Shown piece by piece: positions 3,092 to 62,913 of a stretch of 64,000 nt of DNA. The translations under genes and the position numbers were made by a program. The stretch's first letter is position 1, and each line of letters starts with the position of its first letter. The notes below the pieces were generated by a model. It did not search any database and had not been told where the DNA came from. It saw only the letters and a list, made by a program, of their open reading frames with translations. This stretch comes from Haplodiscus bocki (lineage: Eukaryota): the NCBI GenBank assembly GCA_965655095.1, contig OZ296652.1, positions 103,664,001 through 103,728,000 on the forward strand, given 5' to 3'.

Positions 3092-4831
3092 TGTCGCAGC
3101 GCATCTGCGAGGCTTGTGGACAGTCGCTCCCTGAGTCGAAGGACATACCAGCTTCGTCGTCAACAAACTAGAAACTCACGACTGAAAACTTCACACACAT
3201 ATATTCATTTTTCTCAACATTTGTACATAAACGATACGTAGTAGTTACGTATCAACCCCATGCACATATATGTAAATCGTGTAAACGATACGTATTGGTT
3301 GCGTATCGTTCCATAATAGTCACTCCATGAAAAAACACGTACCCTATACATGCAATTCCGGTGAAGTGATCCAAATTGGGAAGGAGCAACTGCGAAACAA
3401 CAGAAATTCATTTACTTTCCCTACTGTATATTTATATCATTATTAGGTGCATTTTGATAACTACTTTAACTAATTAATATATAACTCTACGTTTTCTAAT
3501 TGACTTTTGCAGTAATTTAAATCAAGATTGACAGTATCAATGAGTTTGCAATAATTCATACAGCTATTATTACAGAGCGTGACTTTAAAAGTGAATAATT
3601 CTTCCGTATGTGTTCCGTCGCAACCAACCTGGTGACGCTACTAGAAGTTAGGCCAAATCGCTGTGCCACTACGCTGTGTCGTTTTGGACGAACACGTAAC
3701 TGTTACGTAGCAACCCATTTCATTCTCAGTAGCTCTGTTGAGAGCAGTGCTACTAGCGGCTACGTGGTCGTTCCGGAAGGCTTCGGCCAAAATCAGGAAC
3801 GAGCTAGTAGAAATGAGGAACGGACTAGTGGAAAACATAGTTTTTTCCCAACATTGGATTTAATGGATGCAATATGTAAGCATGTGTAAACATGAACTTT
3901 ATCAATCATATTTATGTGTTTTATTTTATGTGAAGGTGCATTCTTTAGTATTTTCCTATTATGGAAAATCCTTTGGATCTTCTCTTTATTTTATCATTTA
4001 TTGTGTCGGCGCGAGAATATTCAATTTAACGCCATTTCTGATGGATTAGACCTGTAGTTTTTCCTGTCGAAACATGGAAAAAACGCGGTCTATGAAGAAA
4101 GAAAGGGACGGAGAGATGTTTAATTCCCGCCAGAGTTGGCAATTTTTCTGCATAGACAATATGATTAAAGTACTTTTCCCTATTTTTACCTTGAGTTGGC
4201 GTGGAAACAATCATGTCTCCCGCCAACGAAAAGGTAAAAATACGAGAAACGAAATTGCCAATACTAAGATAAAATTTTGTATCGTTTGTTATTCTACTCA
4301 TTTTCTGAAATCATTGACTATTTGTTGTCGTTGAAACCCTTCTCCCTCATAATAAACGAGATCGACTCTTTTGTTAAAGATTAGGAAATCAATTCAATCT
4401 TCACAGCTGACAGAGCTTTTCCCTCAAAATTATGGCAACACTGAGGAATAAGAGAAAATTAGCTGCAGTTTCGAAGGAAACACTAGAAAATACAAGGAGC
4501 AGTCAGTCACAAAACACAGTTGATCCGGAAGTGGCTCAAGAGTACATCTCCCAAGTTGCTGATGAAATCGAAGGGAAGGTCACTTAAGAACTCTTCAAGG
4601 AATTCAGCTGGACGGAGTCGGGCATTTTGGGCGCTTTGTCTAAACTTGATGAACTTCTTCTGAACCGACAAGTCCGGACTTGTTCCCTAGCTGTTCCGGG
4701 AACAACCAGGAACAACAACTCAGAAAACCTGGAACCCCTGGGGATCGTTCCGTTGGCGATCCATGTCCCGAAGTGGTGTTCTCTAGCTTCTGGTAGTCTG
4801 AATGGTTCAGAGCAGAAAGAGACTCATCACA
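3092..4831 (+). repeat. 5' LTR (~1.74 kb, TG...CA)
   Basis: Colinear with the TSD-bounded solo LTR at 61179-62913. Ends ...GACTCATCACA, followed directly by TGG (PBS-like). AATAAA at ~4350. Confidence 0.88.
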
Positions 4832-6016
4832 TGGTCTCAAGAGTTCAACAAGACACTCCCTACTGCTCCCATGGAGCTTCGCCAGGAAAAGAAAAGAAGG
4901 AGCGCTCTACAATTCAGCCAGAATTTCGTACTGAAATCACCCCTGAGACAATTGAAGCAAACCAGATTCTGTTGGCCCTTCATGAATTGGCGATGAACAG
5001 CACTTCAGCCAATTTCAACAACAATATCAACAGAATCGCGAAATTGCTTAAATCCCTCACAACGACAATGCGCATTTTTTACGGGAAATCAAATAAAATC
5101 TAACTGTATGAAGATGTGTTCCAGGCAGGTTTGAGAATCTACAATGAACTTACAGAAGACGACAAAAGAAACTACTTCCACTCTCTCATGCCTGGTGATT
5201 CGCTAGAAACATTCAAAAACATCATCAGCTTCAAAGGAGGAAACTTCGGAGAAATTCTGAGTGTGTTCCGTAGAAAACACGTGAAACCCCAGGCAATGGT
5301 TACAACAAAACACAAATTTCCACGACTGGTCTTCAAACCAGCGAACCAGAAGTTATCACATTTTCTAGACGAACTCCAGAAGCTAGAGAAAGATGCATTC
5401 GGAGTTGCCGTTGAGGCAATTCATATATGCCAAAATGCTACCCCAACTGATGAAATTGATTAATCAGGCGCAGTTGGAGAAGGGCACAATTGAACAGATT
5501 GTGTCATATCTTGAAAGAGAGTTGGAGCTGAATGGTTTGGAAGCTCCAGATGAGCTGCAGATAATTGCTGTGACGCAACAAGCCACACAACAAAACCAAA
5601 AACATCCAAACCAACTTGCCACCACTGCAAAGTGCAAGGTCAATATCGAAACCAGTGCCGTCAACTCAAACCAGAAAGAAACCAAGCCCAAAGCAACACG
5701 AATGGTGCCGGCAATAAATAACAACAGCAATAATGGTGGTCAGACAAATTCTAACTCCAACAAAAAAAACTCCTAGCAATACCAACGCAATGAATACAAG
5801 CAATCAAAAAGACAAGAAACCTAGAACTGTCTACGCACCCTGTGAGACCTGTGGTAAAAGTAACTGTTCCTTATAGAAATCCTATTTTGGAGCAAACGCA
5901 GCTAATAGACAGCCTCCCGGGAATAGACGGCCGGAAGGACAGACTCAAGTCCAAAAAAGAAAAACTCAAAATAATTCAGATGTGAATGTTCAAGCTGCAG
6001 CCCAAACTTCAACTAG
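4432..6016 (+). pseudogene. gag: gag-like ORF (disrupted), starting inside the 5' LTR
   Basis: MATLRNKRKLAAVSKET...; capsid-like segment (ELTEDDKRNYFHSLMPGD); degenerate Zn knuckles (TCHHCKVQGQYRNQC; PCETCGKSN). Contains stops and frameshifts. Confidence 0.8.
4832..4845 (+). promoter_or_regulatory. putative primer-binding site (TGGTCTCAAGAGTT; resembles tRNA-Leu-type TGGTGTCAGGAGT)
   Basis: TGG immediately after the LTR-terminal CA. The tRNA identity is tentative (2 mismatches). Confidence 0.6.
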
Positions 6017-6019
6017 AAA

Positions 6020-9000
6020 CGCCGCCTCTTCACTCCGGAGCTGCATGTGACAGACCGGAGGCAATTAAAACACAAATACTCCCACCATCTCCCGAGGTTG
6101 TCTGGCATCAACTCACGGAGACATTTATAGATCAATACAACTTAAAAATACCAAAAAAGACTCTACAATACAATATACTCAAGAAACTCAAACAGCGAAT
6201 ATAGCAAGTCAAACGTCGCCACCGAAGATAATTCAACCACAGAACTACGTAGTTGCCACGGAACCACCAACAAGAATTCAAACAGGAAACGACCCTGTAC
6301 TGTTCCTTAGCTGCTCCAAAAATTGTCCTACTGATATCGAAGAATCAGAACAGCCCACAACGACTACCTTTACTGAAGATACCACCATCCCATTTCTCAC
6401 GATAACAACCCCACTAATTGAGGAGGGGTTGATGAGAGATTAACAGACTAATGAGGTTTATCTCCCATTAACCTCTACGAAGGTCTTCAAACGAAACAAA
6501 AATTGCTCTATTTGCCGCTGGATTTCGAGAGTAACCTAACAGTAGATACCTTGGTAGACTCAGGAGTCTATGTCAATGCAATTGCTCAGAATGACTTGGA
6601 CATAATAAAACAGAAAGCCCTAAATAAAATTCTCAAAATCGACCCTCCCAACTTTCAACTAGTAGCAAATGGCCAGTTAGAAAAACCGTTAGCAACAACC
6701 ACGCTTTAATTTGAAACTGGAGACAATATATTTGCTGAAAATTTTGTCGTAATGAAGAAATTAACAGGTCCCATAACAGGGTTCCATTTTATGAAGAACA
6801 ACAGTGTAGTCATTGACACAACACAAGGTCTCATACCTTTCCCACACTTGACGATGCAAGTTAAAACTGCCTCAAGTGAAACAACAGCAAAACCCCAATC
6901 TGTCCTCAATGACAATGCCCTGACGATACCACCAAGGACAACAAAACAATCACAGCTTTTGTTGACCATGGTTCAGAAAGGAACACAACAGTGACTGTGA
7001 CACCATTGGAGAAGTTTACGGAAACAGCGAGTCTGCTGACTTCCCCTGAAATGTCCACAAATTAAAAAGAGAATAGCAGTCAGGGTAACCAAGACAACCA
7101 AATCACCATATCTAATCAAAAAGAACACACAGGTTGCAGAATTCTCCGTAGTCACTACGTCAGAGTTCAAGGAATTTTTTGATTCAGTCAATACAGTTCT
7201 CAGTGATGCTTGCGAACTAGCACTGAAACAGCCCATTCCAGGAAAAAACTGGTCCTATTGAGGGATGCCAGCTTTAGAAGTGGTGGATATGCCCTCTTTA
7301 TTGAAAACAATCCCCTTCAAAAGAAACGGTCCAAGCGGAAAAATTACCCCCCGTGGCGTTTGGTTCAAAAATTTTCTCCCCCGTGCAACTCAAGATGCCC
7401 ATATAGTCCAAAGAAATTTTGGCAGTTTACATGGCATTTCTTTAGTTTGCACATGTTCTGTGGGAAGCATCAAAACCAACAATTGTTTTGACAGATAACA
7501 AATCTGTTACACGTTTTTTCCAAGCAAAAGCAATTCCACCAGCACTGTGGAATGCCTGTGATTATCTGTTAAAATTCAATTTCAAAACAGCAAACCCTGC
7601 CAGTTCAGTCAACACTGCGGTGGACTCTCTCGAAACCGAAACACAAAGTGGCGGAAAAGATACGTCTCAAAGACCGGGAAGATCTTCAAATAAAACACAT
7701 TCAATTGACCACATCTTCCTCAGATGCCGCTGAAGAAGAACAATTTTTCTTCACACAAGCAGACAATGAAGACATGTCAGAAGAACAAACCCTTGAACAA
7801 AAAGATCAATGCGGACAAAATGCGAAGCAATATGTAGCAACTGAGGAACCAGCCTCATTGAAAACAAGTTTGAAAGAATTTACAAAGATAGACGGAAACA
7901 CTACATCGTAATCCGTGAACAGAATCAAGGCAAATGCACAAATACGAGTGAAACAAGATGTCGGTCTGGTCTTGAAAAACATGAAATTGAAATTTCCAGG
8001 CCAACCATATGACGTGCTAATTAAGACGGACTAACGACACAAACAAAACAAGGCAAATGAAGACCGCATATTTCCTAAAGATGGCCTACTATTCAGGAAA
8101 GATTTTGGACAAACGGGTAGCGTCAAAAACTCACAAAATCTAAACCCAAAGCAATCAGCTCTTGAAGTATTCCAGAGCTTGCACGGAAAATTTCGATATT
8201 TCCCAGCCCAGGAATTACCAAAACAATAATTGCTTAGAGTGAAAAAATCTATTTCCCGGAAATGGCGCAAATGACCAGGAAGTGCGTCATGTCATGTGAG
8301 TAATGCACCAGAGAATCACGAATTGATCGCAGCTTCACCCGCTTTTCCCTGCAAAACCCTAACGAGCACATTACTGCACCAGAGGATGCCATGCAAGAGG
8401 ATTTGGTGCCGGAGTTGCCTCGTTCCGGTAGGTATGGAAATGTTTTGACAACCATGGACGTATTTTCCCAAATTTATTTGCCTACCCGACGTCACACCGA
8501 GACGCCAAAACAATTGCTGAAGTTTCTATCAACATCATGAGCAAGCACATTTATTTATCAACGACACTCATTTCAGATAAATGCTCACATTTCGCGTCTC
8601 ACGTAATTAAACAAGTGACCGGCGTCATCGGTATTACTCTAAAGCACGCAACCTCATTGCACGCACAAACAATTGGGCTGCTTGAACGATCTCCTGCGTC
8701 AGTCAAACAAGTGTTTAAGGTCGAAACAAGCGAGCGAAGATCATTGTGGCATAAATATGTCATTATTGCGGTCCTCAATTACAAAACTTCTCGTCACACA
8801 AGCAATGGCTGTGAGCCAAGCACAGTCTTTCATGGGCGCATTCCTTACAATATATTGGATTTAAAAATGGGAGTTCTTCCACAGCAAGCACCCACTCCCA
8901 CTTCTCCAAATTGCCCAAGATGTTCTTGACCAAACCCAGATGATCTACCAAGATCTTTGACGAAATGCGATGCAAGCGTGCATCAAATACAAAGCTTAAT

Positions 9001-9630
9001 ATGACTAAAAGGCAAACGCTTCAAAGCTCAAAGAGGCAGATTACGTTTATGTCTTACAGCGGGAAGCAGACCACCAGAGGAGTAAACTCTTTTTTAAGGA
9101 ATTCCGGTGGCTTGGCCCCTACATTATTGAAAAAGTGTTACCGAATAACAATCAACTGGTACGCAAAATTGGCACCAACAAGACGCAAGTGCTTCATCCC
9201 ACGCGAATACGTCAGATCACACCCCACCAATCCCTGCCTAATAAACGAATCACGCCACAAGAATCGAAACCCGATCGGGAAGTGAGCCTCAAACACGATG
9301 ATTTGTATGCCAGAGCGTGGGAGTGGGAACATGAATGCCAATTTTTGACGCCGAAAAATGATAATGCAACGCCACCCAGGTCACCCAAAATTGCAATACC
9401 GTCTAAATAATCAACCGAGGAAACGTGCAACACACCAGGAACCGCACGAGAGTGTTTCTGAGGATGTTTTCCACAAGGGGAGGGTGAGTAACAGTTACAA
9501 ACCCCAACATGGGAGCTGATGCTGAGACAAGCTCCGAACAGCCAAACAAAAATCCGACTAACCCCTGCAGTTTGAAATGCAATTTACGTCATAACCCGGA
9601 GCTTAATTGCAATAACGATTACAGATATTA
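6020..9630 (+). pseudogene. pol: pol (protease, RNase H, integrase with GPY/F motif); reverse transcriptase domain absent
   Basis: Protease LVDSG (~6550); RNase H LVLLRDASFRSGGYAL and TDNKSVTRFF; integrase core (TMDVFS, LISDKCSHF, LLERS); WLGPYIIEKVLPNNN. No YxDD-containing RT block is seen. Confidence 0.85.
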
Positions 9631-10027
9631 ATTCTTATGCTGCACTAGTGTGTTCCACGGAACGCATACCTAGACGTTCCACAAATTTCAGTACCGCGTT
9701 ACGGAATCAAAACCGAGCAATACAAAAACTTACTTATATTCTGTTCTGGCTATTCCCTGGTCACTAACTCACTTGCTAATCAGTCCTTCCTACTTCAAAA
9801 CATGGCCATTATTATTCAACTCAGCTATATTTTTTTACACACAGGCCGGATTCAGGTCATCCATGATTTCTTTCCCATTTTTCTCAAACTTGTTTACTAA
9901 AATGTATATATACAATAAATACAATAAAGAAGAGGAAAAACAGTTTCATACTGCAGATGATTAGATAACAACAGTGAAAATAGGGGATATAAAGCAGTTT
10001 TCAGTTTAGGAGATGAAACAGCGGTAC

Positions 10028-13000
10028 TTATGGCAATCCTCCTTGGAAAACAATAGCGGTTCTCCGGTTTCGTCCACTAGGACGTGATTTTCTGCAGGAT
10101 TGCTGGCGGTCCAAGGCGGCACTAGAACCCGAATCCATGACTACACGATGTTGTTGAGACGGCCGAGGGAGGACATGCAAATTCGAAGCGCCTAGGTAGC
10201 TTCACCGGGCTCCGACTAACTTCCCTCTTCTTGGACTTTCCTGAGGAAACACGCAGACTGGTGGGGTCGGCAGCACTGATGGAAAGACCACTCACTCAAT
10301 CGTATCCAACCTGCCCCTTTTCCACTATCTTAGAGATTCTCACACCAGAACAAGATGCAATATCTTCTCAAGATAGCCTGTCGCCACATACCGCATACCA
10401 ATTTTCTTGTGAAACCTTGACTGCTCTCCGACGATCCACAGGCCGATTCACACCAGCACAAACGTCAGCCACCAATTGTGAAGAAGACGTGGTCTTCACT
10501 TGGCTCCAGGGTTCAAAAACAACACTACTTGTGATGCTGTCACATATTGCTGCAGACTCAGCCAAAATGGCGATGCCGGACTCAGAAAACAAATTCCTTT
10601 GATTAAAGTGCGGGCTCCTCAGGAAATACTGCGCGCAAAGCAGAGCACCACGCACTTCATCTTCGCCAATCATCACACGATCTAGACTGATATTGAACTT
10701 CTCACTGGAAGTTACTGGCCCACGAATAATGAAAGCTGTTAGCTGGAACACCTGCAAAAAAGACAATTCAATCACCACTCGAACGACGAAAAAGCTTTAA
10801 CTCATTGGTCACGGAACAAACTCTAAAACAGATGCTGGCAAGCACGGAAACGAGCCTGCAAAGAGCAAAACGACAAGACGTCAGCTACGTCAGGGCGGTG
10901 CCTCGTTGAAGACCGGCCCAGCTGTTGTTGCTCTTGGACATAAGACTGGTACTCAGCCCGACAAGCCTCGAACTCGCTGCCTCTGACCCACCCCCTTTCT
11001 AAAAGTCCATCCAGCACAAGACCAATCTGATGAAACGGCGTGTGGTCGTCCCCACCAATGACGATCGCAGGGCCAAAACAACTCAATCCTTGTCCGATTG
11101 CGGAACGAGCAGCTACGTTGGAGATCATAGAGTTTGTTAATTCCTCCAGGAACCTACTGGTTCCCGTCGAAACTCTCTCTTCAAATAAGAACTTTCAATC
11201 TTGTTGAGAGCTGCCAACACCCGCGTCCCATTCAAAAACTCATCGTCGGCAATTGGGCGAAACTTAGGTTGATTTGCCCGCACATACTGTTCCCACTGCT
11301 CCACGAGAGGCAACGAACGTCCTTGATTAATCTTCTGGGGCAGGCAATAAACAAAGCGAGTCAACTCACCAAACGACTGGTACCCATAATCGTTCGATGT
11401 TTGAGGATGAAAAAAATTGTTGGCAACTGAAACAGAACATATGTCACAGACATTGGAAAGACACTACTATCCAGAACTTGCCAAGACTCGTGAAACTTCA
11501 AAAAAGAAAGAAAAATGGAGCAAATGTGGAACATTACTAGAGCGCTCCTGGAATTATTCATGAAACTGATCCGGAATCACTACGTACCGACGTGTTTTAT
11601 AATGGGAAATGTGATGATGACACTTAGAGATTTCCAGAAGAAAATGAAACACCCTGATTTTCATGCGAGCAAGCTGATTGTGGTATAGATGCCCGTCCAT
11701 TCCCTTCATCTAAACAACAAAACGGCAATAAATACATTCTAAAGACGCAAATAAAATACCCACAATGGAAGACTTTACCACAAGGCTATCTCCATCAACT
11801 TTGTGGCCAGTCTCCTTCAGGTATCATACCACTAGTGGCCATACCCCAAAGATATTCGCCACCACATCGACTAGGCTTGGCATGGAGAGGTCGTTAGTAA
11901 TGATGGCCCTTCGCAATGCCGGATCAGGTGCCATCCAATCCCGAGTCTCTGCCCCTTCAACCGCTTCACAACAAATTTCGGCATTGAGAATGGGACAAGG
12001 CTCCCAAACACAGACGGAGCAGTCCACTAGAGGCAACGCTTCATCAGCCGGAGATCAAATATGGGGTACTCCACGAGCTTGGCACGGTACCCATTTCCCA
12101 GGTAACTTGCAAAAGCATCTGCAAGAACATGCTAACCTCCATGCAGAGACACACAGATGCATCTGGACCAGCAGCATCCAGATTTTTGTCCAGAATCGCA
12201 GCCTCCGGGGTAGTGTTGGCGCTGAAGCGGCTCAACGCGACAACACAAACACGACGAAATGTGGAGCTCTCCCAAGTCCGCACCATCACCCAAATCTCTG
12301 AGTTGCGCTCTTCGAACTCAATGCTGCATTGTCCGTGCGCTTTCACCTACCCGAACACACGAGAAAGGATTCGAGGGTACATCCCGTTCAAAATGATCGA
12401 CTAAAACACAGCACCAATAAGCCAATGAACATGGATACACAGACTCATGGAACATGAGATTACCAACCAACACCTCGTCTCGAGACCATGTTACATCAAT
12501 GTTCATTCGGCTGGCAGTCAATGTGAATAGGGGCCACACTTGGTAAACCAGCTCATAGGTGCCACCCAATCGCAACATTTCAATCAGCAACGACACCTTG
12601 GCAAGGACTGGCAACGTGGCATCCAGAGTTCCAGTGTCATCCACAGTTAGATCCTCGGCAAAGGGATACTCTCGATCCCGAATGACCAGAGGACCACGAT
12701 AAATGCGCTTCCTTTGGCGCTTCAGTTCATTTTCACTGAGGGGGTTTCCCTCAAAAAAAGCAGAACCCGCCAACCAGGTGTCTCCAGTCTCAGTTGCTGG
12801 TTACGGGCGAAATGTTTGACACCTTGAAAGTGCCTCAGGATTTCATGTGCACCGTGTGTCAACAGCGACACGTCTTTACGGCAGATGCGGCAATGGAAGT
12901 GGCTAAGTCTGCCAGCCGCATCCATAACTCCAGTGACGAAGTACCGACCAACTTCCTCTGCTCCCCACACCTTCTTCATTTTATACGTGCGCTTTGATCG

Positions 13001-14284
13001 CACACTACGACGGGGATAGCTGGCCTGTGTTTCGCCCACGCTGGTGTCACTGGTGTCAAGAACTTGTGGACCAGAAGGTGCAACACCTTGTCCCAAATGA
13101 GGGAGAACAGCATCTTTTTCTGTGAACAGGAACATTACAGTGAACAGAGGAAAACTATGAAAGCTATGAAATACGTAGTAAATAACTTACTCCCCATCAA
13201 CGGATCCAACATTTGTGCTGTCTCGTCAGCACAAACTGGATAGCACATCGTCAGATATCCTGTGGCGTTAATTGGAGCAAATGCAGAATCAACGGGAAAA
13301 TGGTCTAAATAAATTGAAAGAAATCAGGCGCCCCCAAGGAACCAAACTTAAAGTATCCTCAATCTTAATTAAACTCCCGGCTTCCAATTTCAGCTGGCTT
13401 GGCTGCTGACTCGATGCAGCAACAAAACGACGTGTGATGACAGCACGTTTTTGTCTCCTCCTTTGCCTCATTTCTGCTTCTGTTGAAACATCGCCAGCCC
13501 CGGAGAAACATGAACCATCACCAGCTGGACCTGCAAAAGAGCCAAATAAAACAACTGGTCCCTAATTTGCCAACACGAAGCACAATAATGCTACATACTT
13601 GACGAAATTTCCATGGGAGCAGCTGTCGAAGCGCTAACAGCCTCCTCATTGGACGTAGGGTGTCCCACCACAAATTTGGATCCAGAACTGCATAGAAGAT
13701 CACACATTGTCTCCTCAGGGCGAAAAGCAGGCTCTCCGGAAGAATCAAACACTAAAATACAAAAACCCCATGATGCCATCTTCATGTATAACCGCACGCT
13801 GAATACTAGCTTATGGAAAAGATGAGTGGCCACCATATTATTCCTACAAATAAAGTTAATGGAAAATGAAAAATGAAGAATAACACAATGGCAAATCAGG
13901 AGTATCAACACACCCTCCAGCAAAGTCTCTGTCAAAAATTCTTCACGTTGCAGAATGTCCGCAAATGTTAATCCTTTTGATTCACCTCTAGTATCTCTTT
14001 CCATGCCACCCATGATGACCACCAAACTGTCTCTTTCGCTTGCTTCTTCGACTCAACCATCACTCGCTTCAACCTCCTCCAACGCTCTCCTCACACACTC
14101 TTCTCCCTCTATGACGACAACATTTGAATGGGGGACAAAGTGGGAACTGGGGACCAGACTACTCGCAGAAACATCCTCATTAATTGCAAGTTCTCGCTCG
14201 TCACCGGCTACAATCCCAGCAAAAGGGGAAGTGATCCCTACCTCTTTTCCCGTCGAACTCATTATTTCGAGTAATGAATGACAT
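10028..14284 (-). pseudogene. antisense multi-exon gene inside the retrotransposon; C2H2/BED-like Zn finger plus hAT-transposase-like body (decayed)
   Basis: Minus-strand ORF fragments joined by short GT-AG introns (10752-10821, 11427-11477, 12401-12467, 13120-13190, 13531-13598). Motifs CRICRKDVSLLTHGAHEILRHFQGVKH, CSIEFEERNSEIWVMVRTW and VFQLTAFIIRGPVTSSEKF. The 5' exons are approximate. Confidence 0.7.
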
Positions 14285-14649
14285 GGCTAAAAAGCTATTA
14301 CATGGTGGATTTACATATTTTTTCATTGAAATTCCTAATTAGCTAAATTTTAAGTCTGATTACTTTGTCTGCCAGCAATGACGTCAGCATGCGTTTTCAA
14401 GGATACATTGAGGAACGATACTCAAGTGTTCCCTAAATTAAAAATCTCCAATTTTCATATTTCTTTACATCCCATTAACATCAATTTCACTCTTTACTTC
14501 CTAACCACATCAACACTGACCCGGAACGCGGAAGCATCAAAAGAAATCTCGACTGATGAAAAGCCAAATAAAGTACCCACAATACCAATCACTTTCCTAG
14601 AGTCAATTCATACTAATCAGCTGCATTTTCTCCATCATTAGAATTGAAG

Positions 14650-15317
14650 ATGTTTCGACCAATTTCGCGGGAACCCAATGATTCTGATTTATTTTATGTG
14701 GAACAATCGTCAAATGAACCAAGTCCACCCAGACCCAATACGCTGATTGTCCTCAACTCCACAGAGATGTCAGGCAACAATACCCGGGAAGTGATAACAT
14801 TATCATCCATTGAATCGCCTGGACAACAAATCGTTACAATCGACTCTGCTTCGAACGAACCAACGATGCCAAATCGATTTGGACGACAGCTATCGATTAT
14901 TCTACCAAGCCTCAACTATCTGAACCTGTTGCCTAATGCATTCAATATACTGGCAACAATGGTGGTAGCAAAACCTACAGCAGAAGGACATGACAAAAAC
15001 TACAGCTCCCAATCACGGGAACCGTCGGAACCGTCATTGATTTCGACGCCCCGATGAACCTCAGCACAATTGAGGGATGGGAGGCACCATGTACGACGAC
15101 GGATGATAATACATTCTACTCCGATGATGAACCCAGGAGAATTTATTTTCTACCCTCAAGTCCTTCCCCACCGCCGCCACTCCGAAAACTGAAAAGAAAA
15201 CTGAGCCTTGTAATGTCCTTCCCAAAAAGAGGGGGAGTGTTGCAGCACATCTGCGAGGTTTGTGGACAGTCGCTCCCTGAGCCAAAGGACATACCAAGCT
15301 TGTCGTCAACAAACTAA
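14650..15317 (+). pseudogene. accessory sense ORF (~220 aa, one frameshift near 15054), Ser/Pro-rich with SIM-like motifs and a basic NLS-like stretch; overlaps PPT and U3
   Basis: ORF-track pieces 14644-15057 and 15054-15317 abut. The C-terminus HICEVCGQSLPEPKDIPSLSSTN* is conserved in frame at the start of the LTRs at 3092 and 61179. Confidence 0.6.
15224..15237 (+). promoter_or_regulatory. polypurine tract
   Basis: AAAAAGAGGGGGAG directly before the TG start of the 3' LTR. Confidence 0.85.
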
Positions 15318-15481
15318 AAACTCAAGACTGAAAACTTCATGCAAATATATTACATTATTTTCATCATTTGTACATAAACGATACGTGGTAGTTACGTATC
15401 AGCCCCCAGCACATTTATTTAATTCATATAAATGATACGTAGTGGTTACGTATCGTTCCATAATAGTCACTCCATGAAAAA
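15238..15481 (+). repeat. 3' LTR, truncated (~240 bp)
   Basis: Matches 3092-~3335 (roughly 85-90% identity by eye). Similarity stops after ...CACTCCATGAAAAA. Confidence 0.88.
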
Positions 15482-16817
15482 GGAAATTTTGTTCCGGGTG
15501 CGCATCTCCTCATGAAAAAATGAAAACGTTCTTTTTTCGGAACTTGAAAAATTGTGAGGTTACAGCTTTGTCGGAAAAAACTGATCCTATTTACAGATTT
15601 TGGGACAGTTTTATCCCAATTGGGATGGGTGAAGCATCGCCACTGGATCGATGGTTAGAGTTTGAGGATTTAGATTTCAGAACAAACGCAGTCACACTGA
15701 GATTTTTTGAGAAAACTTTTGGCACCTCGTTAAATAAAAAAAATGTTTGGAGCACACAGTAACTGACAAAAATTCGATTTTGTTCAGCTCATTGAAAACT
15801 TGAAAAGTTTGGAACTTTGAAGTAGAGAGGCGAGACGCCACAGAAGCAAGATTTATCGTACTATTCTTGTAGAACGATTTTTAAAGTTAGAAAGTATCTA
15901 AAGACATTGCGATTAAATTTTACGCCTGGGAAGGCATTAAATTGGTGTTTTTCAGTCTTGATCATTAAAGATTTGATTTTTTTTCTCAAAAAAGGGTTGA
16001 GATAGATGAGATATGGTTTTGATGAAAATGAAAATGGAATCAACTCCAAACAAAATGCTGGTTTTTAGGAAGTTTCTTTCGGAAACCTCCAACAGACACA
16101 TTAAAGTACCACATAAAACTAAAAACGGTTCAAAACTACTCGTTTAGTAATTCTCGGGCAAGATTATGGTAGAATGAAAGCTCAAGTGATTAAATGAAGT
16201 ATGTACCGATTTTAGCAAGGTGAAATAAAACGCCTCTCTTTTGTTTTCCCAAGTAAATTGGTAAAGAAGAAACCTGGATAGTCCTCCTATACTTCGCAAA
16301 GCATATACAATGGTCTTTTTGTGTCAAGTTTGAAGATCAAAAGAAATCACTAGCAAACTGAGTTGAGATAACAAATGACCTTTGAGACAACAATACAAAG
16401 CAATATCAGGAAAAAAGTGCTTTTCGTGAAAAAAATGGTTCAGATTAAAACTGGGAGATGATCATGTAAAGTCAATAGAGGCCATCGTAGATCGAATAGC
16501 AGCATTGTCCGAGCGAGATTAAAATAGAATATCGGAGATATCGGAGATCGAAATGATTCGTTCTGACAGCAGAAAAGATCAAAGTTGGTCGTTTTGAAGT
16601 GAACAAGGCCGTTAAAGAAGAATATATTTTTGTCCTCCCCTCCCGTCGAATATTCAAAGAATTTTTAATTAATCTTTGTATCATACCTCACAAAGCTCAC
16701 AACAGGTCTTTCTTGTCTTCACCAAGCGAGATTTCAGTCCAACGAAAGTTGAGTTGACATCACAAGTCATTTTGACTAAGAAAGCTGGAAAAGCTTCTGA
16801 GGGACAACTTTAGTTTC

Positions 16818-21005: not shown

Positions 21006-24000
21006 GTCAGTCAAAAAATAAAAAGTCTGTACTCACCAAGTGAAATCTTGACGTTAATTGATTAAGCGAGCAAAAATTAACTGGTTGATTAGTTAACCGA
21101 ACTCACATTGATTCTACCAAAACCAGCTTGATAATTGATGGAAAAAACATAGCATTTGAATTTTTGGGATGAAATAAAAACGATAGTTTTGACAGTCTGA
21201 GAGAGCAACATCATTTCTAGTAGAAAATATCCTCCTAGTAGCTTAATGGCACCTCAAAACAATTTAGGTTTTCGAGACCTGCCCTGGCACTGAAAACAAC
21301 TTTTCTCGTGACAGCACAGCTTTCTTTAAAATAGATGCAATAATGTCGTTAAGCGGTCATATTATTTTAACCTGTAAACCGGGTCAATCTCTGCGCCAAT
21401 ATTTTTAAATTCAATTAATAAGCAGAACCACATACTTTAAGGAAGAGCGCCATTACAACTGGAAAAATCGGCTTTATTTTTGTTTTTCTTTCACTTAATC
21501 GACAGCGTGCGACTACAAAATTTTGAACTTTTAAACCCAAAAAAAACAAATTCTTGAGCAACTATTGATTCGAAAAAGCACCAATGATTAAATATTACAA
21601 CGCGGTTGTTTCAACGACCGAATGAAGTTTGTATACATGGGACTGTCACTTTCGTACAATCTTTCCGGATGACTTATCCAGATGAAGATCCAGACGAAGA
21701 TTCAGAAAAGTGGATAGTTGAAGTTGTTTGCAGATTTTTACATATTAGGTCCTAGAAATATAATAAGATTATTCTAAACGTAAGTTAATCAAAAAATTTA
21801 GTGCACGAACGAAAGGAAGCAACTAGATTAGTAGATGAGCATTTTAAAAAAAGCTAGAGAGCGAGAGTTCTGTTGATAGGGACTTGACATCCCTGTATTA
21901 TAACAAACTGCCCAATTGAAACAATTTTTAAATCTACGAAATCAAAAACACTGTCGCATTTGAAAAAAGTAGTCTTCGATTAAATCAGAGGTTCTAAAAA
22001 TTTTTATATGCGTATCTGGAAAAGCTCATTGTTTTAATCTAAATAGCTATACTATCACGGTGAAAAACAAGACGAAAAAACTATGTCTCTAAACCTGATA
22101 TTCGTTTTTTCCTGCCTCGAGCTCTCACGTTTCCAGAAATAAATCACCACCTGAATAAAGTTTTCTGATAATTAGATTCGCAAATTAAATGAATAAAAAC
22201 TGAAGTTTTCCAATATTTGAAAAAATTCGTGCGGTTTGCAGTCCTTGAAATAATTCTCAAAGAGTAGTTTCTGGGGCTGAAAAAAAGTCTGTAAAAAAAG
22301 AATGAAATGAATTGGAATCAGTACCTCGTCCTAGACCAATTTGAACTTCTGCTAAGTGAAAAACAAAGATTCAGGAAACGCATCAAAAACAGCAGAAAAC
22401 AAGATTTTTTCACAAATACGTCATATGTTACAGCCGGGCGACAGATGGGACGATCCGAAAGACTCGTGCAAAGAAAAACAATGTGATTCGAATGGTAACA
22501 TAGTGACCTTCAACAAAGAGACACCACAGTGTCAAACGACAACACAAGGCGTACCAACTCCATCAACTCCAGGTGTACCTACTCCATCGACTACAGGAGT
22601 CCCTACTCCATCAACCCCAGGCGTACTCACTCCATCAACACCAGGTGTACCAACTTCATCAACACCAGGCGTACCAACGCCATCAACTCCAGGCGTGCCT
22701 ACTCCATCAACACCAGGAGTGCCTACTCAATCAACTCCAGGCGTGCCTACTCCATCAACACCAGGAGTACCCACTCCATCAACATCAGGCGTACCAACTC
22801 CATCAACTCCAGGCGTGCCTACTCCATCAACACAAGGAGTACCAACTCCATCAACACCAGGCGTACCAACGCCATCAACTCCAGGCGTGCCTACTCCATC
22901 AACACCAGGAGTGCCTACTCCATCAACTCCAGGCGTGCCTACTCCATCAACACCAGGAATACCCACTCCATCAACAAGGGGCGTACCCACTCCGTCAACA
23001 CCAGGCGTACCCACTCCATCAACACCAGGTGTACCTACACCATCAACACCAGGCGTACCAACTCCATCAACTCCAGGCGTCCCAACTCCATCAACACCAG
23101 GTGTTCCAACTCCATCAACACCAGGCGTACCGACTCCATCAACACCAGGCGTGCCTACTCAGTCAACACCAGGAGTGATTACTCCATCAACTCCAGGCGT
23201 GCCTACTCCATCAACACCAGGTGTACCTACACCATCAACTCCAGGTATACCAACTCCATCAACACCAGGCGTACCAACTCCATCAACTCCAGGCGTGCCT
23301 ACTCCCTCAACACCAGGAGTGCCTAGTCCATCAACTCCAGGCGTGCCTACTCCATCAACACCAGGAGTACCCACTCCATCAACACCAGGCGTACCAACTC
23401 CATCAACTCCAGGCGTGCCTACTCCATCAACTCCAGGCGTACCAACTCCATCAACACCAGGTGTACCAACTCCATCAACACCAGGCGTACCAACTCCATC
23501 AACTCCAGGCGTACCATTTCAATCAACTCCAGGCGTGCCTACTCCATCAACACCAGGAATACCCACTCCATCAACACCAGGAGTTCCAACTCCATCAACT
23601 CCAGGCGTGCCTACTCCATCAACACCAGGAGTGCCTAGTCCATCAACTCCAGGCGTGCCTACTCCATCAACACCAGGCGTACCAACTCCATCAACTCCAG
23701 GCGTACCAACTCAATCAACTCCAGGCGTGCCTACTCCATCAACACCAGGAATACCCACTCCATCAACACCAGGCGTACCCACTCTGTCAACACCAGGCGT
23801 ACCCACTCCATCAACACCAGGTGTACCTACACCATCAACACCAGGCGTACCAACTCCATCAACTCCAGGCGTACCAACTCCATCAACACCAGGTGTACCA
23901 ACTCCATCAACACCAGGCGTACCAACGCCATCAACTCCAGGCGTGCCTACTCCATCAACAACAGGAGTGATTACTCCATCAACTCCAGGCGTGCCTACTC

Positions 24001-27000
24001 CATCAACACCAGGTGTACCTACACCATCAACTCCAGGTATACCAACTCCATCAACACCAGGCGTACCAACTCCATCAACTCCAGGCGTGCCTACTCCCTC
24101 AACACCAGGAGTGCCTACTCCATCATTACCAAGAGTACCCACTGCATCAACTCCAGGCGTACCAACTCCATCAACTCCAGGCGTACCAACTCCATCAACT
24201 CCAGGAGTACCTACTCCATCAACTCCAGGCGTACCCACTCCATCAACACCTGGTGTACCAACCCCGTCAACACCAGGAGTATCTACACCATCGACTCTAG
24301 GCGTACCCACTCCATCAACTCCAGCCGTGCCGACTCCATCAACACAAAGAGTACCCACTCCATCAACACCAGGAGTACCCAGTGCATCAACACCCGGTGT
24401 ACCGACTCCATCAACACCAGGCGTACCAACTCCTTCAACACCAGGTGTACCAACTCCATCAACACCAAGCGTACCAACTCCATCAACTCCAGGCGTGCCT
24501 ACTCCATCAACACCAGGAGTGCCTACTCCATCAACACCAGGAATACCCACTCCATCAACACCAGGTGTACCGACTCCATCAACTCCAGGCGTTCCAACTC
24601 CATCAACACCAGGCGTACCCACTCCATCGACACCAGGCGTACCCACTCCGTCAACACCAGGCGTTCCCACTCCATCAACACCAGGTGTACCTTCAAAATC
24701 AACACCAGGCGTACCAACTCCGTCAACTCCAGGCGTACCAACTCCATCAACACCAGGCGTGCCTACTCCCTCAACACCAGGAGTGCCTACTCCATCAACA
24801 CCAGGAGTACCCACTGCATCAACGCCCGGTGTACCCTCTCCATCAACACCAGGCGTACCAACTCCATCAACACCAGGTGTACCAACTCCATCAACACCAG
24901 GTGTACCAACTCCATCAACACCAGGCGTACCTACTCCATCAACTCCAGGAGTACCTACTCCATCAACTCCAGGCGTACCCACTCCATCAACACCAGGTGT
25001 ACCAACCCCGTCAACACCAGGAGTACCTACACCATCAACTCCAGGCGTACCCACTCCATCAACTCCAGCCGTGCCGACTCCATCAACACCAGGCGTACCT
25101 ACCCCATCAACGCCAGGAGTGCCTACTCCATCAACACCAGGAGTGCCTACTCCATCAACACCAGGAGTACCCACTGCATCAACACCCGGTGTACCGACTC
25201 CATCAACACCAGCCGTGCCGACTCCATCAACACCAGGGGTACCCACTCCATCAACATCAGGAGTACCCACTGCATCAACACCCGGTGTACCGACTCCATC
25301 AACACCAGGCGTACCAACTCCTTCAACACCAGGTGTACCTACACCATCAACACCAGGCGTACCAACTCCATCAACTCCAGGCGTGCCTACTCCATCAACA
25401 CCAGGAGTACCCACTCCATCAACACCAGGTGTACCGACTCCATCAACTCCAGGCGTACCAACTCCATCAACACCAGGCGTACCCACTCCATCAACACCAG
25501 GCGTACCCACTCCGTCAACACCAGGCGTGCCTACTCCCTCAACACCAGGAGTGCCTACTCCATCAACACCAGGCGTACCAACTCCATCAACACCAGGCGT
25601 ACCCACTCCGTCAACACCAGGCGTGCCTACTCCCTCAACACCAGGAGTGCCTACTCCATCAACACCAGGCGTACCAACTCCATCAACTCCAGGCGTACCA
25701 ACTCCGTCAACACCAGGTGTACCTACACCATCAACACCAGGCGTACCAACTCCCTCAACACCAGGAGTGCCTACTCCATCAACACCAGGCGTACCAACTC
25801 CATCAACTCCAGGCGTACCAACTCCGTCAACACCAGGTGTACCTACACCATCAACACCAGGCGTACCAACTCCATCAACACCAAGCGTGCCTACTCCGTC
25901 AACACCAAGCGTGCCTACTCCGTCGACACCATCGCAGCCGGCTCCGTCTACTCCAGGTTCGAGCACATCGTTTTCGACGGTATCAGTAACACCCATTGTT
26001 CCCAAAACGACGTGTTAGATTTTTGCTATTTTTCGCTTGCGTGCATCGTTTTGGATAATATTTAAATGGATTTTTTAGCGCCACCATACGGAAACACACC
26101 ACCAACACCTGGTTATTTTTTCAACATTTTTTCAATCATTTTTTGGCAATATGGGTTACATTTCTTGCTTTGAATCACCTTGTCCATTTTCCTAAAAAGT
26201 CTTTCTGAAAGTGATCGGGTGCTGTCTTCTGAAGTCGAACTTTCCAGCTATCGAATCTGCAGCTCTTCATTCTGGTGACTTATCTTTTACGGTCTTTTCA
26301 GGACCTATCACTACAACTACTCCAAGCGAGTTCAGCAGCACAGAAAAACCATCTTGTGACCCAGCTTTGCCATGTGGTGAATCAAAGACGAGTGTTGTTA
26401 CCGAAAAATGCGACGACTCTCAGATTGATGACCCCAATTGTGGTCTGAAATACACTGACACAACTACCGTACATGGATGTTGTGAAGGTTTGTGAGCTAA
26501 ACAAATTCATACACGATCGAGCATGACAATTGCATTGGTTTATGAGATGAAAAATGAATTGAATTGACATATTTTCCTAGTTGGATCATTTGGGAGATTT
26601 TTGCATGATCTTCAACATTTATTTCAAGTTAACTTATCGATGATCTGCTTGAACAGACAAATAGGCAAGATATTTACCACAACTCCTTCCGAGTAATTCA
26701 ATTCTGCCACGCAAAATTGTTTTCTTTTGTTTCGTTTTTTTTTGTTGAGATTGCAGTTTTTTGTTGAAGAATGTATGCTTCCTTACGAAGAGTGTGCTGA
26801 GAACAAGACATGTGTGGAAATTCAATATGGATCACCTTCGGGTGATGGCTCTAGTGACGGATGTTGCTGTGGAGCGGACACCGTTTATGACGAGGTCACC
26901 AAGTCTTGTGTGAAACCAGATAACTGTGGCTGTGTGTACAATATGTCTGGAGAGTATAAGACATTCACTCCCATGGACAGCAGTGTCACGTACAAGCCCG

Positions 27001-43700: not shown

Positions 43701-45235
43701 TGTCGCAGTATATCCGCGAAGCCTACGAGCACCAAGAAAGAAAAGGACATCACCGGATTGTCTGAAATTTGGAAGAAACTGTATCGAAACTTTGGATTTT
43801 TCTATTTCCATTTTTATTATAATGTTGCAATCATATTTTAACGCCTTTAGATGTAGTTGATACGTATCAAATACGTATCACTCCCCAGTAAATGTTCATG
43901 TAAATTGTACGTATTGTATACGTCGCACTCCCGTGTACTAATCCAGATTGGGACGGAACTGTTACGGAACGGACATGTATCTACCTGGTAGCTACACTAG
44001 TAAATATTTGTTCCGTACGCCTTCCGTCGCTACCAATCTGGTGACGTCACAAAAATTTCAACCAATCCGCTGTGCTATTATGCTGTGTCAATTGGGACAA
44101 ACACAGACCGGTTACGTAGCCACCTAAATCATTATTCTCAGTAGCACTGCGGCGAGCAGTGCTACATGCGGCTACGTAGTCGTTCCGCAACGCTTTGGCC
44201 AAAATGAAGAACTGGCCCGTATTAACGAGGAATGGACTAGAAAATAGGCTAGTTTTGTTCCAAAAGTGGATTTAATCGATGCAATAGTATTTCGAAGCAT
44301 GTAATTATGATTTTCTATGATTATTTTAGTGTATTTTACCTAATTTTAGTGCATTTTTTATTAGTTTCCTCGTATGGAAAATCTTTGATCATTTGTTTAT
44401 GTTAATACTTATTGTGCCGGCGCCGGAAAAAGCACTTTGATGTCAATTACCGACTGATCAGACCCGTATATTTTCCGTCGAAAAATGGAAAAGGCGCGGT
44501 GTGTAAAAGAAGAAATGGACGGAAAGATGTTTATTTCCCACCAGAGTTGGCACATTTCCTATGTATTTATTATGATTAAAGTACTTTTCCCTACTTTGTA
44601 CTTTTACTTGGCGTGTAAACAAATATGTTTCCCGCCAAGTGAAAGGTATAAATAGGAGAAATGAAAGTACTGAGGAGAAATTCTTAATATCACTTTGATT
44701 ATCAGTCGACTGTACTGATTGCGACTAGTTGGTTATTCTAAAGAATAACATTTTTTGTTATAGTCTCAAGTTGATTAACAAATAAGAACTAATTCAGTCT
44801 TCATAACTGCGTAGCAATTTCCCTTCAAAAAGATGGCAACAATGAGAAACAAACGAAAGTTGGCAGACGTTACCAGAAAAACACAAGAGGAACATCCTAG
44901 GAACGGCCAGTCACGGCACACGTCCGTTCCTAGAACTAACGAGGAATATATCACACAAGTTTCCGAGGAGATTGAAGGCAGAGTCTGTAAAAAACTGTCC
45001 CAGGAGTTCAGCAGGACAGAGTCCCGCATTTTGTGTGCTCTGTCTAAGTTAGACGAATTTCTCTTGAACCCACAGATACGGACGCACTCCGGAACCGTTC
45101 CGGGAACATTCCGAAACACAAACGTGGAAAACCAGGGAACGAATGAGGACGGCTCCCAGAGTGATCCTCATTCTGAAGCAGGCATCTTCGGCAGCCAGAC
45201 TACACCAAACTCTGGCCCAGAATTTGGCCCTGACA
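43701..45235 (+). mobile_element. solo LTR related to the 3092 element (1535 bp)
   Basis: TGTC...GACA termini, 5-bp TSD CAATC (43696-43700 and 45236-45240); similar to 3092-4831. Confidence 0.9.
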
Positions 45236-61178: not shown

Positions 61179-62913
61179 TGTCGCAGCACGTCTGCGAGGC
61201 TTGTGGACAATTGCTCCCTGAGCTGAAGGACATACCAAGCTCGTCGACAACAAACTGAAAACTCAAGATTGAAAAGTTTTATTTAAACATTTTCCGCATC
61301 AATTTTAAATTAAGGATACGTAGTAGTTACGTATCCACCTTGTACACACATATGTAATTCATGTAAACGATACGTAGTAGTTACGTATCGTTCGATAACA
61401 TGTAGTTCATGTAAAGAACACATATCCGATACGTGTAATTCTGGTGAACTGATCCTGATTGGGACGGAACAGATACGGAGCAAACGGATATTCATTTATT
61501 TCCTTACTGTATTCTTATATTGATATTAGGTGCTATTTTATATGATTTATCTAACTAATTATTATATAAATCCAACTTTTCATCGACGTGTGCAGTAAGC
61601 AGTTTATCTAGGTTGACAGTTTCAACAAGTTTTCAATAGCTTAACTATTATTATAGAGCTTGATTTTAAAAGTGAATTTTTGTTCCGTCTGTGTTCCGTC
61701 GTAACTAATCTGGTGACGTCACTAGAATTTCTGCCAATCCGCTGTTTCACTTTAGAGGGACACGGAACAGCTACGTAGCCACCCGATTCATTCTCATCAG
61801 TAGCGCTGCGGAGAGCAGTGCTGCAAGCGGCTACGTAGTCGCTCCGGAACGCTCCGGCCAAAATGAGGCGTGAGCTGGTAGAAACGTGGATTGGACTAGA
61901 AAAAACCTAATTTTGTTCCCAACAGTGGTTTTTATCGATGCAGTACGTAACCACGTGTAAACATTAACTTGTCTAGCATTTATGTGAATTTTGTTTTATG
62001 TATTTCATTTATTTTTCCGATGCGTTTAATTAATTTCCTCTTATGGAAAACTTCTTTGATCTTTTGTTATGTTATTATTTAATGTGTCAAGGCGGGAATA
62101 ACCACTTTGATGTCCATTTCCGACGGATCAGACCAGTTTTTTTTCCGTCAAAAGGTGGAATCGACGCGGTCCGTGAAGGGAGAAATGGACGGAGAGGTGT
62201 TTATTTCCGCCAAAGTCGGCATTTTCCTTTTATAAATGATATGATTAAAGTACTTTTCCCTATTTGTACCTTAATTGGGCGTGTAAACAAGTATGTTTCC
62301 TACCAAGGGAAGGTATAAATAGGAGAAAAAAAGTACCATTAATATTATATAAATTTTAGCCTTCTGGTATTGTAAATTTTTTTAAATCAATGACTGTTTG
62401 CATTTCTTCAAACCCTTTTACCTCATAATAAGAGGAGATCATCACTTTGGATTATAAAACAAAAATTTCAATTCAATGTTCACTGCTGACAGAACTTTTT
62501 CCTAGTATCATGGCAACTTTGAGGAATAGGAGGAAATTAGCAGAAGTTTCAAGAGAAACACCCGAAAATACCAAAAATATTCAGTCACAGAACACGCTTG
62601 ATCCAGAAATGGCTCTAGAATACATCTCCCAGGTTTCCGACGAGATCGAAGGGAGGGTAATTAAAAGGTTTTCAAAAGAATTCAGTGGGGCAGATTCTCG
62701 TTTCTTGGGTGCTCTGTGAAAACTTGACAAATTCCTTCTGAACCCAAGTTCGGACTTGTTCCGTAGCCGTTCCGGGAAAATCCAGGGACAGCAAATCAGA
62801 AAAACGGGAACCGACTGGGGATCGTTCCCTGGACGATCCCTGTCCCGGGGCGAGATTCTCTTCTCATCACTCTGGCAGTCTAAATAGCTGAGAGGTGGAA
62901 GAATATCCTCACA
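61179..62913 (+). mobile_element. solo LTR of the 3092 family (1735 bp) including gag start at 62510
   Basis: TG...CA, 5-bp TSD GCAAT (61174-61178 and 62914-62918); colinear with 3092-4831. Confidence 0.93.

Follow-up and report, generated by a model that had tools for sequence, protein, structure and literature searches.

A lysine-desert accessory gene extending into the 3' LTR of an abundant Ty3/Gypsy retrotransposon of Haplodiscus bocki, with candidate SUMO-interacting sites and a divergent antisense partner

Complex retroviruses (HIV/SIV nef, foamy-virus tas/bel, HTLV-1 tax, HBZ) encode small, motif-driven regulators, with a sense gene lying over the polypurine tract (PPT) and U3 and an antisense gene in the 3' region. 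The plant Ty3/Gypsy elements Retand, Grande and RIRE2 also have further ORFs, in both orientations, in the region from pol to the 3' LTR, and the available texts leave their function unexplained (PMC11963269; PMC7264820). We report here on a Ty3/Gypsy LTR retrotransposon in a window (the whole stretch of DNA analysed) of 64,000 nucleotides from Haplodiscus bocki (contig OZ296652.1, positions 103,664,001 to 103,728,000, forward strand; coordinates below count from its first letter), in which an initial annotation made from the letters alone had proposed a Nef-positioned accessory ORF bearing four tandem SUMO-interacting motifs (SIMs). The layout recalls nef, with a sense gene overlapping PPT and U3, and HBZ, with an antisense gene in the 3' region. 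Unlike in complex retroviruses, the two genes here appear to diverge from a common internal spacer, with no use of the 3' LTR as antisense promoter; Pfam and AlphaFold revealed no sequence or fold likeness of the sense protein to retroviral accessory proteins, and no env was found in the copies examined.

As far as the available texts describe them, the plant elements share with this one a long pol-to-LTR region (2.9-6.6 kb there, ~5.5 kb here) and a conserved antisense gene with a transposase-related domain (Transposase_28 in plants), and Grande gene23 has its own internal promoter, as is likely here. They differ in that the present host is an animal, that eight GT-AG introns and a hAT-like fold are predicted for the antisense gene, and that a second, selected sense gene extends into U3. 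The main text of PMC11963269 never uses the word 'intron', and for the plant ORFs the accessible part of PMC7264820 gives no TE origin. Extra ORFs between pol and LTR are thus already known, and an animal element with a divergent pair of a lysine-free, U3-overlapping gene and an intron-rich hAT derivative was not found in the openly accessible literature searched, which likewise yielded no account of this family or of any LTR element carrying an intron-rich antisense gene derived from hAT.

The RT-RNase H-integrase order of the element was read from the pol of a relative (RVT_1 279-444, RT_RNaseH 509-643, Integrase_H2C2 840-894, rve 916-1009). The main features of the window copy are:

3092..4831, + strand: 5' LTR, ~1,740 bp, TG...CA, with TGG directly after
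4432..9410, + strand: decayed gag-pol, up to the last recognised fragment
10027..14262, - strand: antisense accessory gene, nine predicted exons, decayed in this copy
14263..14649, no strand: spacer between the divergent start codons, conserved, no codon periodicity
14379..14386, no strand: TGACGTCA palindrome, present in 20/20 young copies
14650..15317, + strand: sense accessory gene, frameshifted near 15048 in this copy
15224..15237, + strand: PPT, crossed in frame by the sense ORF
15238..15482, + strand: 3' LTR, truncated
61179..62913, + strand: solo LTR of the same family, 5-bp target duplication GCAAT on both sides

This copy is old, as judged from its LTR pair, identical at 217/242 shared bases, and from its 40 best-scored relatives, which are 81-87% identical over the sense ORF. 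Compared with relatives, its gag-pol lacks ~1.25 kb near 7156. The gag ATG (4432) lies inside the 5' LTR, which holds ~400 bp of the gag frame (4432-4831), so that solo LTRs contain both the gag start and the end of the accessory ORF; a placement of the sense ORF upstream of gag was rejected, the LTR being 1.74 kb long and including the gag start. The family is very abundant, with at least 150 scored matches per protein search of the genome and ~11,000-12,000 first-look candidates, and many genome matches to the sense ORF are free of stops. Searching this genome with the integrases of two relatives further removed gave matches no higher than 68% and 58%, respectively. A third LTR fragment of the same family, 5'-truncated, lies at 43999-45136, and Rfam over 13500-15500 returned only a chance MIR5148 match (E 0.58).

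The initial annotation described a Ser/Pro-rich ORF reading through the PPT into U3. The frame does cross the PPT and stops at 15315-15317, 80 nt into the 3' LTR; in the window copy, however, it is split between two frames (N-terminal half 14617-15057, C-terminal half 14994-15317), and the single uninterrupted frame is seen in other copies, with 222-244 aa in most intact ones. Those first 80 nt of the 3' LTR (15238..) encode an HxCxxC-bearing C-terminus, whose frame and stop position are indeed equal in the LTRs at 3092, 15238 and 61179 (stops TAG, TAA and TGA, respectively). Taken alone, 80 nt in frame across three LTRs of one family is weak evidence for a gene; that the ORF is real follows from dN/dS across the family. 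Of 140 loci fetched, 126 were distinct and 96 were placed in nine subfamilies on a tree. Net dN/dS between subfamilies is 0.07-0.28 in 35/36 pairs (one pair saturated; dS up to ~2), and within 8/9 subfamilies it is 0.35-0.62, nearer the value expected from post-insertion decay. A second set of 20 copies with long open pol frames was taken from 300 rows of two integrase searches, the choice being made through integrase so that the ORF itself would not select them. All 20 carry the sense ORF, 15 of them intact, with a dN/dS of 0.14 compared with 0.09 for integrase. The sense ORF is a protein-coding gene under purifying selection, and all 20 pol-selected copies have it. The Nef-like position claimed for it stands, and the frame is open in 15/20 younger copies, a check that the initial annotation had named. 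The protein has no Pfam match (E up to 1) and no named relative among the 120 listed of 1,949 database matches or the 150 listed of 551 profile matches.

Occupying the position of env, the gene might instead encode an envelope-like or structural protein, or be a passenger frame held open by DNA-level constraint from the PPT and LTR, and synonymous variation is in fact lowered over its PPT/U3 part (pS 0.09-0.39 compared with ~0.6). Such a reading is extremely improbable: over residues 1-160 synonymous sites vary freely and replacements are purged, no fold is predicted, and a transmembrane stretch is absent from all 120 proteins (19-aa hydropathy mean >1.5; env test >1.6), on which ground an env role was rejected. 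Conservation of the protein is strongest at residues 68-103 and 182-207, and the reduced synonymous variation at the latter shows DNA-level constraint on top.

The antisense gene lies head to head with the sense gene and starts ~390 bp upstream of it on the opposite strand. The spacer between them has a p-distance of 0.13, compared with 0.26-0.28 for the two flanking genes, and its identity peaks at 0.94 around TGACGTCA, a palindrome that we take to be CRE-type and that lies ~285-325 bp upstream of the sense start in 20/20 copies. One copy with unrelated upstream DNA (L058) was excluded from the spacer statistics, and a rearranged one (L156) from the antisense and spacer alignments. A coding frame within the spacer was rejected, as there is no codon periodicity and frames shift between copies. 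These properties suggest that the spacer is likely a bidirectional internal promoter. The regions compared (integrase, antisense gene, spacer, sense ORF, LTR) give discordant trees (Spearman 0.28-0.60), which indicates that modules have been shuffled between lineages, and in view of this discordance the low spacer divergence could come in part from recombination between lineages.

The antisense gene was modelled with the following exons, all on the - strand, and one non-coding block:

~14262-13885: predicted exon 1, acidic
13726..13893, no strand: conserved non-coding block, mostly within predicted intron 1
~13752-13599: predicted exon 2
~13530-13373: predicted exon 3
~13305-13191: predicted exon 4
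~13119-12468: predicted exon 5, BED-like C2H2 finger (C-x2-C...H-x5-H)
~12400-11779: predicted exon 6, RNase-H-like, hAT-transposase-like domain
~11709-11628: predicted exon 7
~11426-10822: predicted exon 8
~10751-10027: predicted exon 9

The eight predicted introns are mostly 61-84 nt long, with one of ~133 nt and one of ~170-390 nt. Their GT/AG junctions are kept across 21 aligned copies and most of their interiors diverge, and in each predicted exon one frame alone has a pN/pS well under 1 (0.22-0.74; L154, which has a deletion, was left out of the exon statistics). All eight canonical splice pairs are present in 15/20 scored copies and seven in the remaining 5/20 (pol-selected set plus one reference); after intron removal, 8/21 copies give a frame of 1,173-1,191 aa. 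Two other splice models, one with an intron 1 of 40 nt and one with a donor within that intron, lacked conservation and were dropped. In contigs of unrecorded type from four runs, with coverage in all 30 bins, none of the 15 joints listed among 156 coincided with a predicted intron, a result that has no bearing on expression. The non-coding block at 13726..13893 has an identity of 0.80, compared with 0.53-0.67 for other introns, is more conserved than the flanking exons too, and has a GC-rich palindromic core; it is a candidate enhancer, packaging or recombination site.

No antisense exon has a significant sequence match in Pfam or PDB. With a model of exon 6 (pLDDT 57), Foldseek ranks 1-9 are all Hermes hAT transposase (best E 2.5e-4, TM 0.31), and a wider structural search gave generic matches only, with Z up to 6.1. 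Like Hermes (PDB 4d1q), the antisense protein would have a BED-like zinc finger followed by an RNase-H-like domain; unlike Hermes, it is carried inside a retrotransposon, and the likeness comes from a low-confidence model of one exon. No conserved acidic residue was found at the strand end where the second catalytic Asp would be expected, a position that we presume from the predicted strand order, and the protein is on this account likely inactive; the third catalytic residue was not located. No terminal inverted repeats are reported around the gene. The fold model suggests that it was likely taken from a hAT DNA transposon.

AlphaFold predicts a disordered sense protein (mean pLDDT 46, no fold, too poor for a fold search); it is 28% Ser+Pro and consists of conserved motif islands between variable linkers. 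Its features, all on the + strand, are:

14689..14712: core 1 (acidic-V/L-F-Y-V-E), the best conserved core, pN/pS 0.01-0.07
14743..14766: core 2, beginning with D or N in 4/9 subfamilies
14791..14814: core 3, SIM-like (aliphatic) in old lineages
14830..14853: core 4 (hydrophobic-hydrophobic-T-I, then D/S-rich), pN/pS 0.25
14851..14961: central block (~residues 68-103), the largest strongly conserved stretch, pN/pS 0.10-0.14
15135..15149: RR[IV]x[FW] motif, PP1-docking-like
15174..15200: poly-Pro stretch plus basic cluster, where the lysine desert stops

In 15/15 young intact copies the first 179-218 aa of the protein contain no Lys and keep 6-10 Arg. Over the subfamilies, none of the 1,549 inherited residue states in this desert is Lys, and none of the 192 at variable columns; among 905 residues that arose by decay in the old subfamily, 96 are Lys, a neutral rate of 10.6% that is approximate, since the tally includes frame-shifted stretches. 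Retention of Arg alongside purging of Lys is more readily explained by avoidance of conjugation than by avoidance of positive charge. Acidic activation regions tend to be poor in Lys, and exon 1 of the antisense gene, also acidic, has no Lys in 4/5 copies checked; lysine loss is not specific to SUMO/ubiquitin adaptors.

These observations bear on whether the protein could activate transcription in trans, as foamy-virus Tas or HTLV Tax do, its acidic-aromatic Ser/Pro region serving as an activation domain that boosts the internal and LTR promoters via CRE-bound host factors. A disordered chain that combines acidic-aromatic islands and a basic cluster would suit that role, as would the invariant CRE-type palindrome upstream of the sense start in 20/20 copies and the similar gene position, beside the 3' LTR and with an internal promoter, in complex retroviruses. 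The keeping of Arg with purging of Lys, however, runs counter to it, and there is no recognisable DNA-binding domain, HxCxxC offering three ligands only, so that we regard a trans-activator as unlikely. Among disordered proteins of the ubiquitin system, such as the SUMO-targeted ligase Slx5, lysine deserts that retain Arg are over-represented, and their proposed role is to avert stray conjugation (PMC10169902, available text). By analogy, the desert independently points towards SUMO/ubiquitin biology.

The four peptides on which the SIM proposal was built are present (LFYVEQSS at 14689, LIVLNSTE at 14743, VITLSSIE at 14791, IVTIDSAS at 14830), and the intervals between them, 18, 16 and 13 residues, are not periodic, contrary to the regular spacing described. 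In the available texts, the SIM consensus is hXhh or hhXh (h = I, V, L) with acidic or phospho-Ser flanks (PMC8616421; PMC12751080), and is degenerate, with many false matches (PMC8616421). Cores 1 and 4 are hydrophobic with acidic or Ser flanks in 9/9 subfamilies. Core 1 has two aromatic residues and is not a strict I/V/L SIM; core 4, frequently with F in young copies, is the best SIM candidate. In 4/9 subfamilies a hydrophobic position is missing from cores 2 and 3, whose pN/pS of 0.39-0.65 is like that of linkers (0.47-0.48). The match of core 2 in the window copy rests on a private residue, the first L of LIVL, at a column that is hydrophobic in ~4% of copies (mean over nine subfamilies) and P in most, and core 3 contains P in 4/9 subfamilies and 14/15 young copies. 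The four residues after each core are conserved (flank pN/pS 0.14-0.18) and are Ser/Thr/acidic at all four. Selective conservation of cores over linkers, another consequence of the proposal, is thus seen for cores 1 and 4 and is absent for cores 2 and 3, and the 16 core positions pooled show no less variation than random N-terminal positions (P 0.31-0.35). Within the first 75 aa, a strict I/V/L core occurs in 5/15 young intact copies, two in 1/15 and three in 0/15, compared with three in the window copy, one owed to the private residue; relaxed cores with acidic flanks average 3.3, a moderate excess over shuffled sequences, of which 7% reach three.

An RNF4-like poly-SUMO receptor that sequesters SUMO chains through four tandem SIMs would draw on the three strict cores of the window copy, the aliphatic core 3 of older lineages, the flanks kept at all four cores, and a lysine desert reminiscent of Slx5. 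It is nonetheless very unlikely: cores 2 and 3 fail in 4/9 subfamilies, 10/15 young copies have no strict SIM and only one has two, the pooled cores are no more conserved than their neighbours, and no RING or other ligase domain is present (Pfam 0 matches), HxCxxC with its three ligands being the only approach to a RING. An RNF4-like array of four is not supported by these patterns, and one or two SIM-like sites in the sense protein are plausible. With RNF4, Slx5 and the viral SIM proteins ICP0, K-bZIP and LANA the protein shares a disordered region and short hydrophobic cores with acidic or Ser flanks, and with Slx5 the lysine desert; it differs from RNF4 and Slx5 in lacking a RING domain and in that its strict SIM cores are not conserved (PMC12751080; PMC10169902; available texts). 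The host has a single-exon SUMO gene (L161:1480-1758, minus strand), 86% identical to SUMO of Convolutriloba macropyga and 83% to that of Symsagittifera roscoffensis, which places the host most likely among the convolutid acoels.

Toward the C-terminus, the basic stretch PPLRKLKRK reported by the initial annotation is found at 15174, and its basic cluster, conserved in 105/120 proteins, is likely a nuclear localisation signal. The RR[IV]x[FW] motif occurs in 96/120 proteins and 13/15 young copies, with I/V and F/W swaps inherited, and sense proteins carry a mean of 8.9 S/T-P sites. From these features one might propose a phospho-regulated cell-cycle or phosphatase adaptor, in which RR[IV]x[FW] docks PP1, the basic cluster, on our assumption, acts as a cyclin-docking RxL, and about nine regulated S/T-P sites time transposition in stem or germ cells. 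The motif is absent, however, from several divergent relatives, and the PP1 RVxF consensus, given in the available text as [KR][KR][VI]x[FW], where x may be any residue except F, I, M, Y, D or P, excludes the Tyr found at x in most copies (PMC12723162). A PP1 interactor by the strict consensus was rejected, and we assign the adaptor as a whole a low probability. Among young copies (L169-L185) there is a 16-22 aa insertion, in several of them duplicating an EPRR-[IV]-Y module, and in one copy (L179) the central FNILATM module is duplicated.

The reading we prefer, to which we give about an even chance on the sequence patterns above, is that the spacer drives both genes and that the sense product is a nuclear, motif-based adaptor working near SUMO/ubiquitin conjugation. 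Both genes would be transcribed from the conserved spacer, the sense mRNA would end in the 3' LTR, and the basic cluster would import the protein into the nucleus, where lysines may have been purged as a result of its working where conjugation happens. That the protein touches SUMO weakly at one or two sites, through cores 4 and 1, is a tentative addition, which we hold to be somewhat less probable than not. In Drosophila, piRNA-guided silencing depends on SUMO (10.1101/533091, available text), and a silencing role for SUMO in acoels would be an extrapolation from flies and nematodes; by this analogy the target of the protein might be the silencing apparatus, a counter-silencing function that we think rather unlikely. 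Guidance of the sense protein by the BED-finger protein is doubtful. It is similarly doubtful that the two genes form a counter-defence cassette with one bidirectional promoter, in which the hAT derivative would bind element DNA via its BED finger, the lysine-free adaptor would grip SUMO and disarm silencing, and variants would be shuffled onto a near-uniform pol in an arms-race-like manner. In the pol-selected copies (L169-L188), dS is 0.30 for integrase compared with 1.27 for the sense ORF, a contrast that the choice of copies by integrase likeness may bias.

Extra ORFs are widespread in LTR retrotransposons and mostly unexplained, transposon-encoded counter-silencing proteins are poorly known in animals, and the very abundant family described here retains two accessory genes under selection. 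Since the antisense gene faces away from the genomic RNA's direction, its introns would escape splicing from that RNA, and its orientation would let it keep all eight through reverse transcription; if so, this would be one route by which a retroelement can take along a spliced gene acquired from a DNA transposon. For the small sense protein, the features under selection (lysine desert, two cores, central block) have been mapped, which makes partner pull-downs feasible. Elsewhere in the window, 22356-26065 consists of ~140 tandem copies of a 24-bp unit, in which one frame is open for 1,220 codons.
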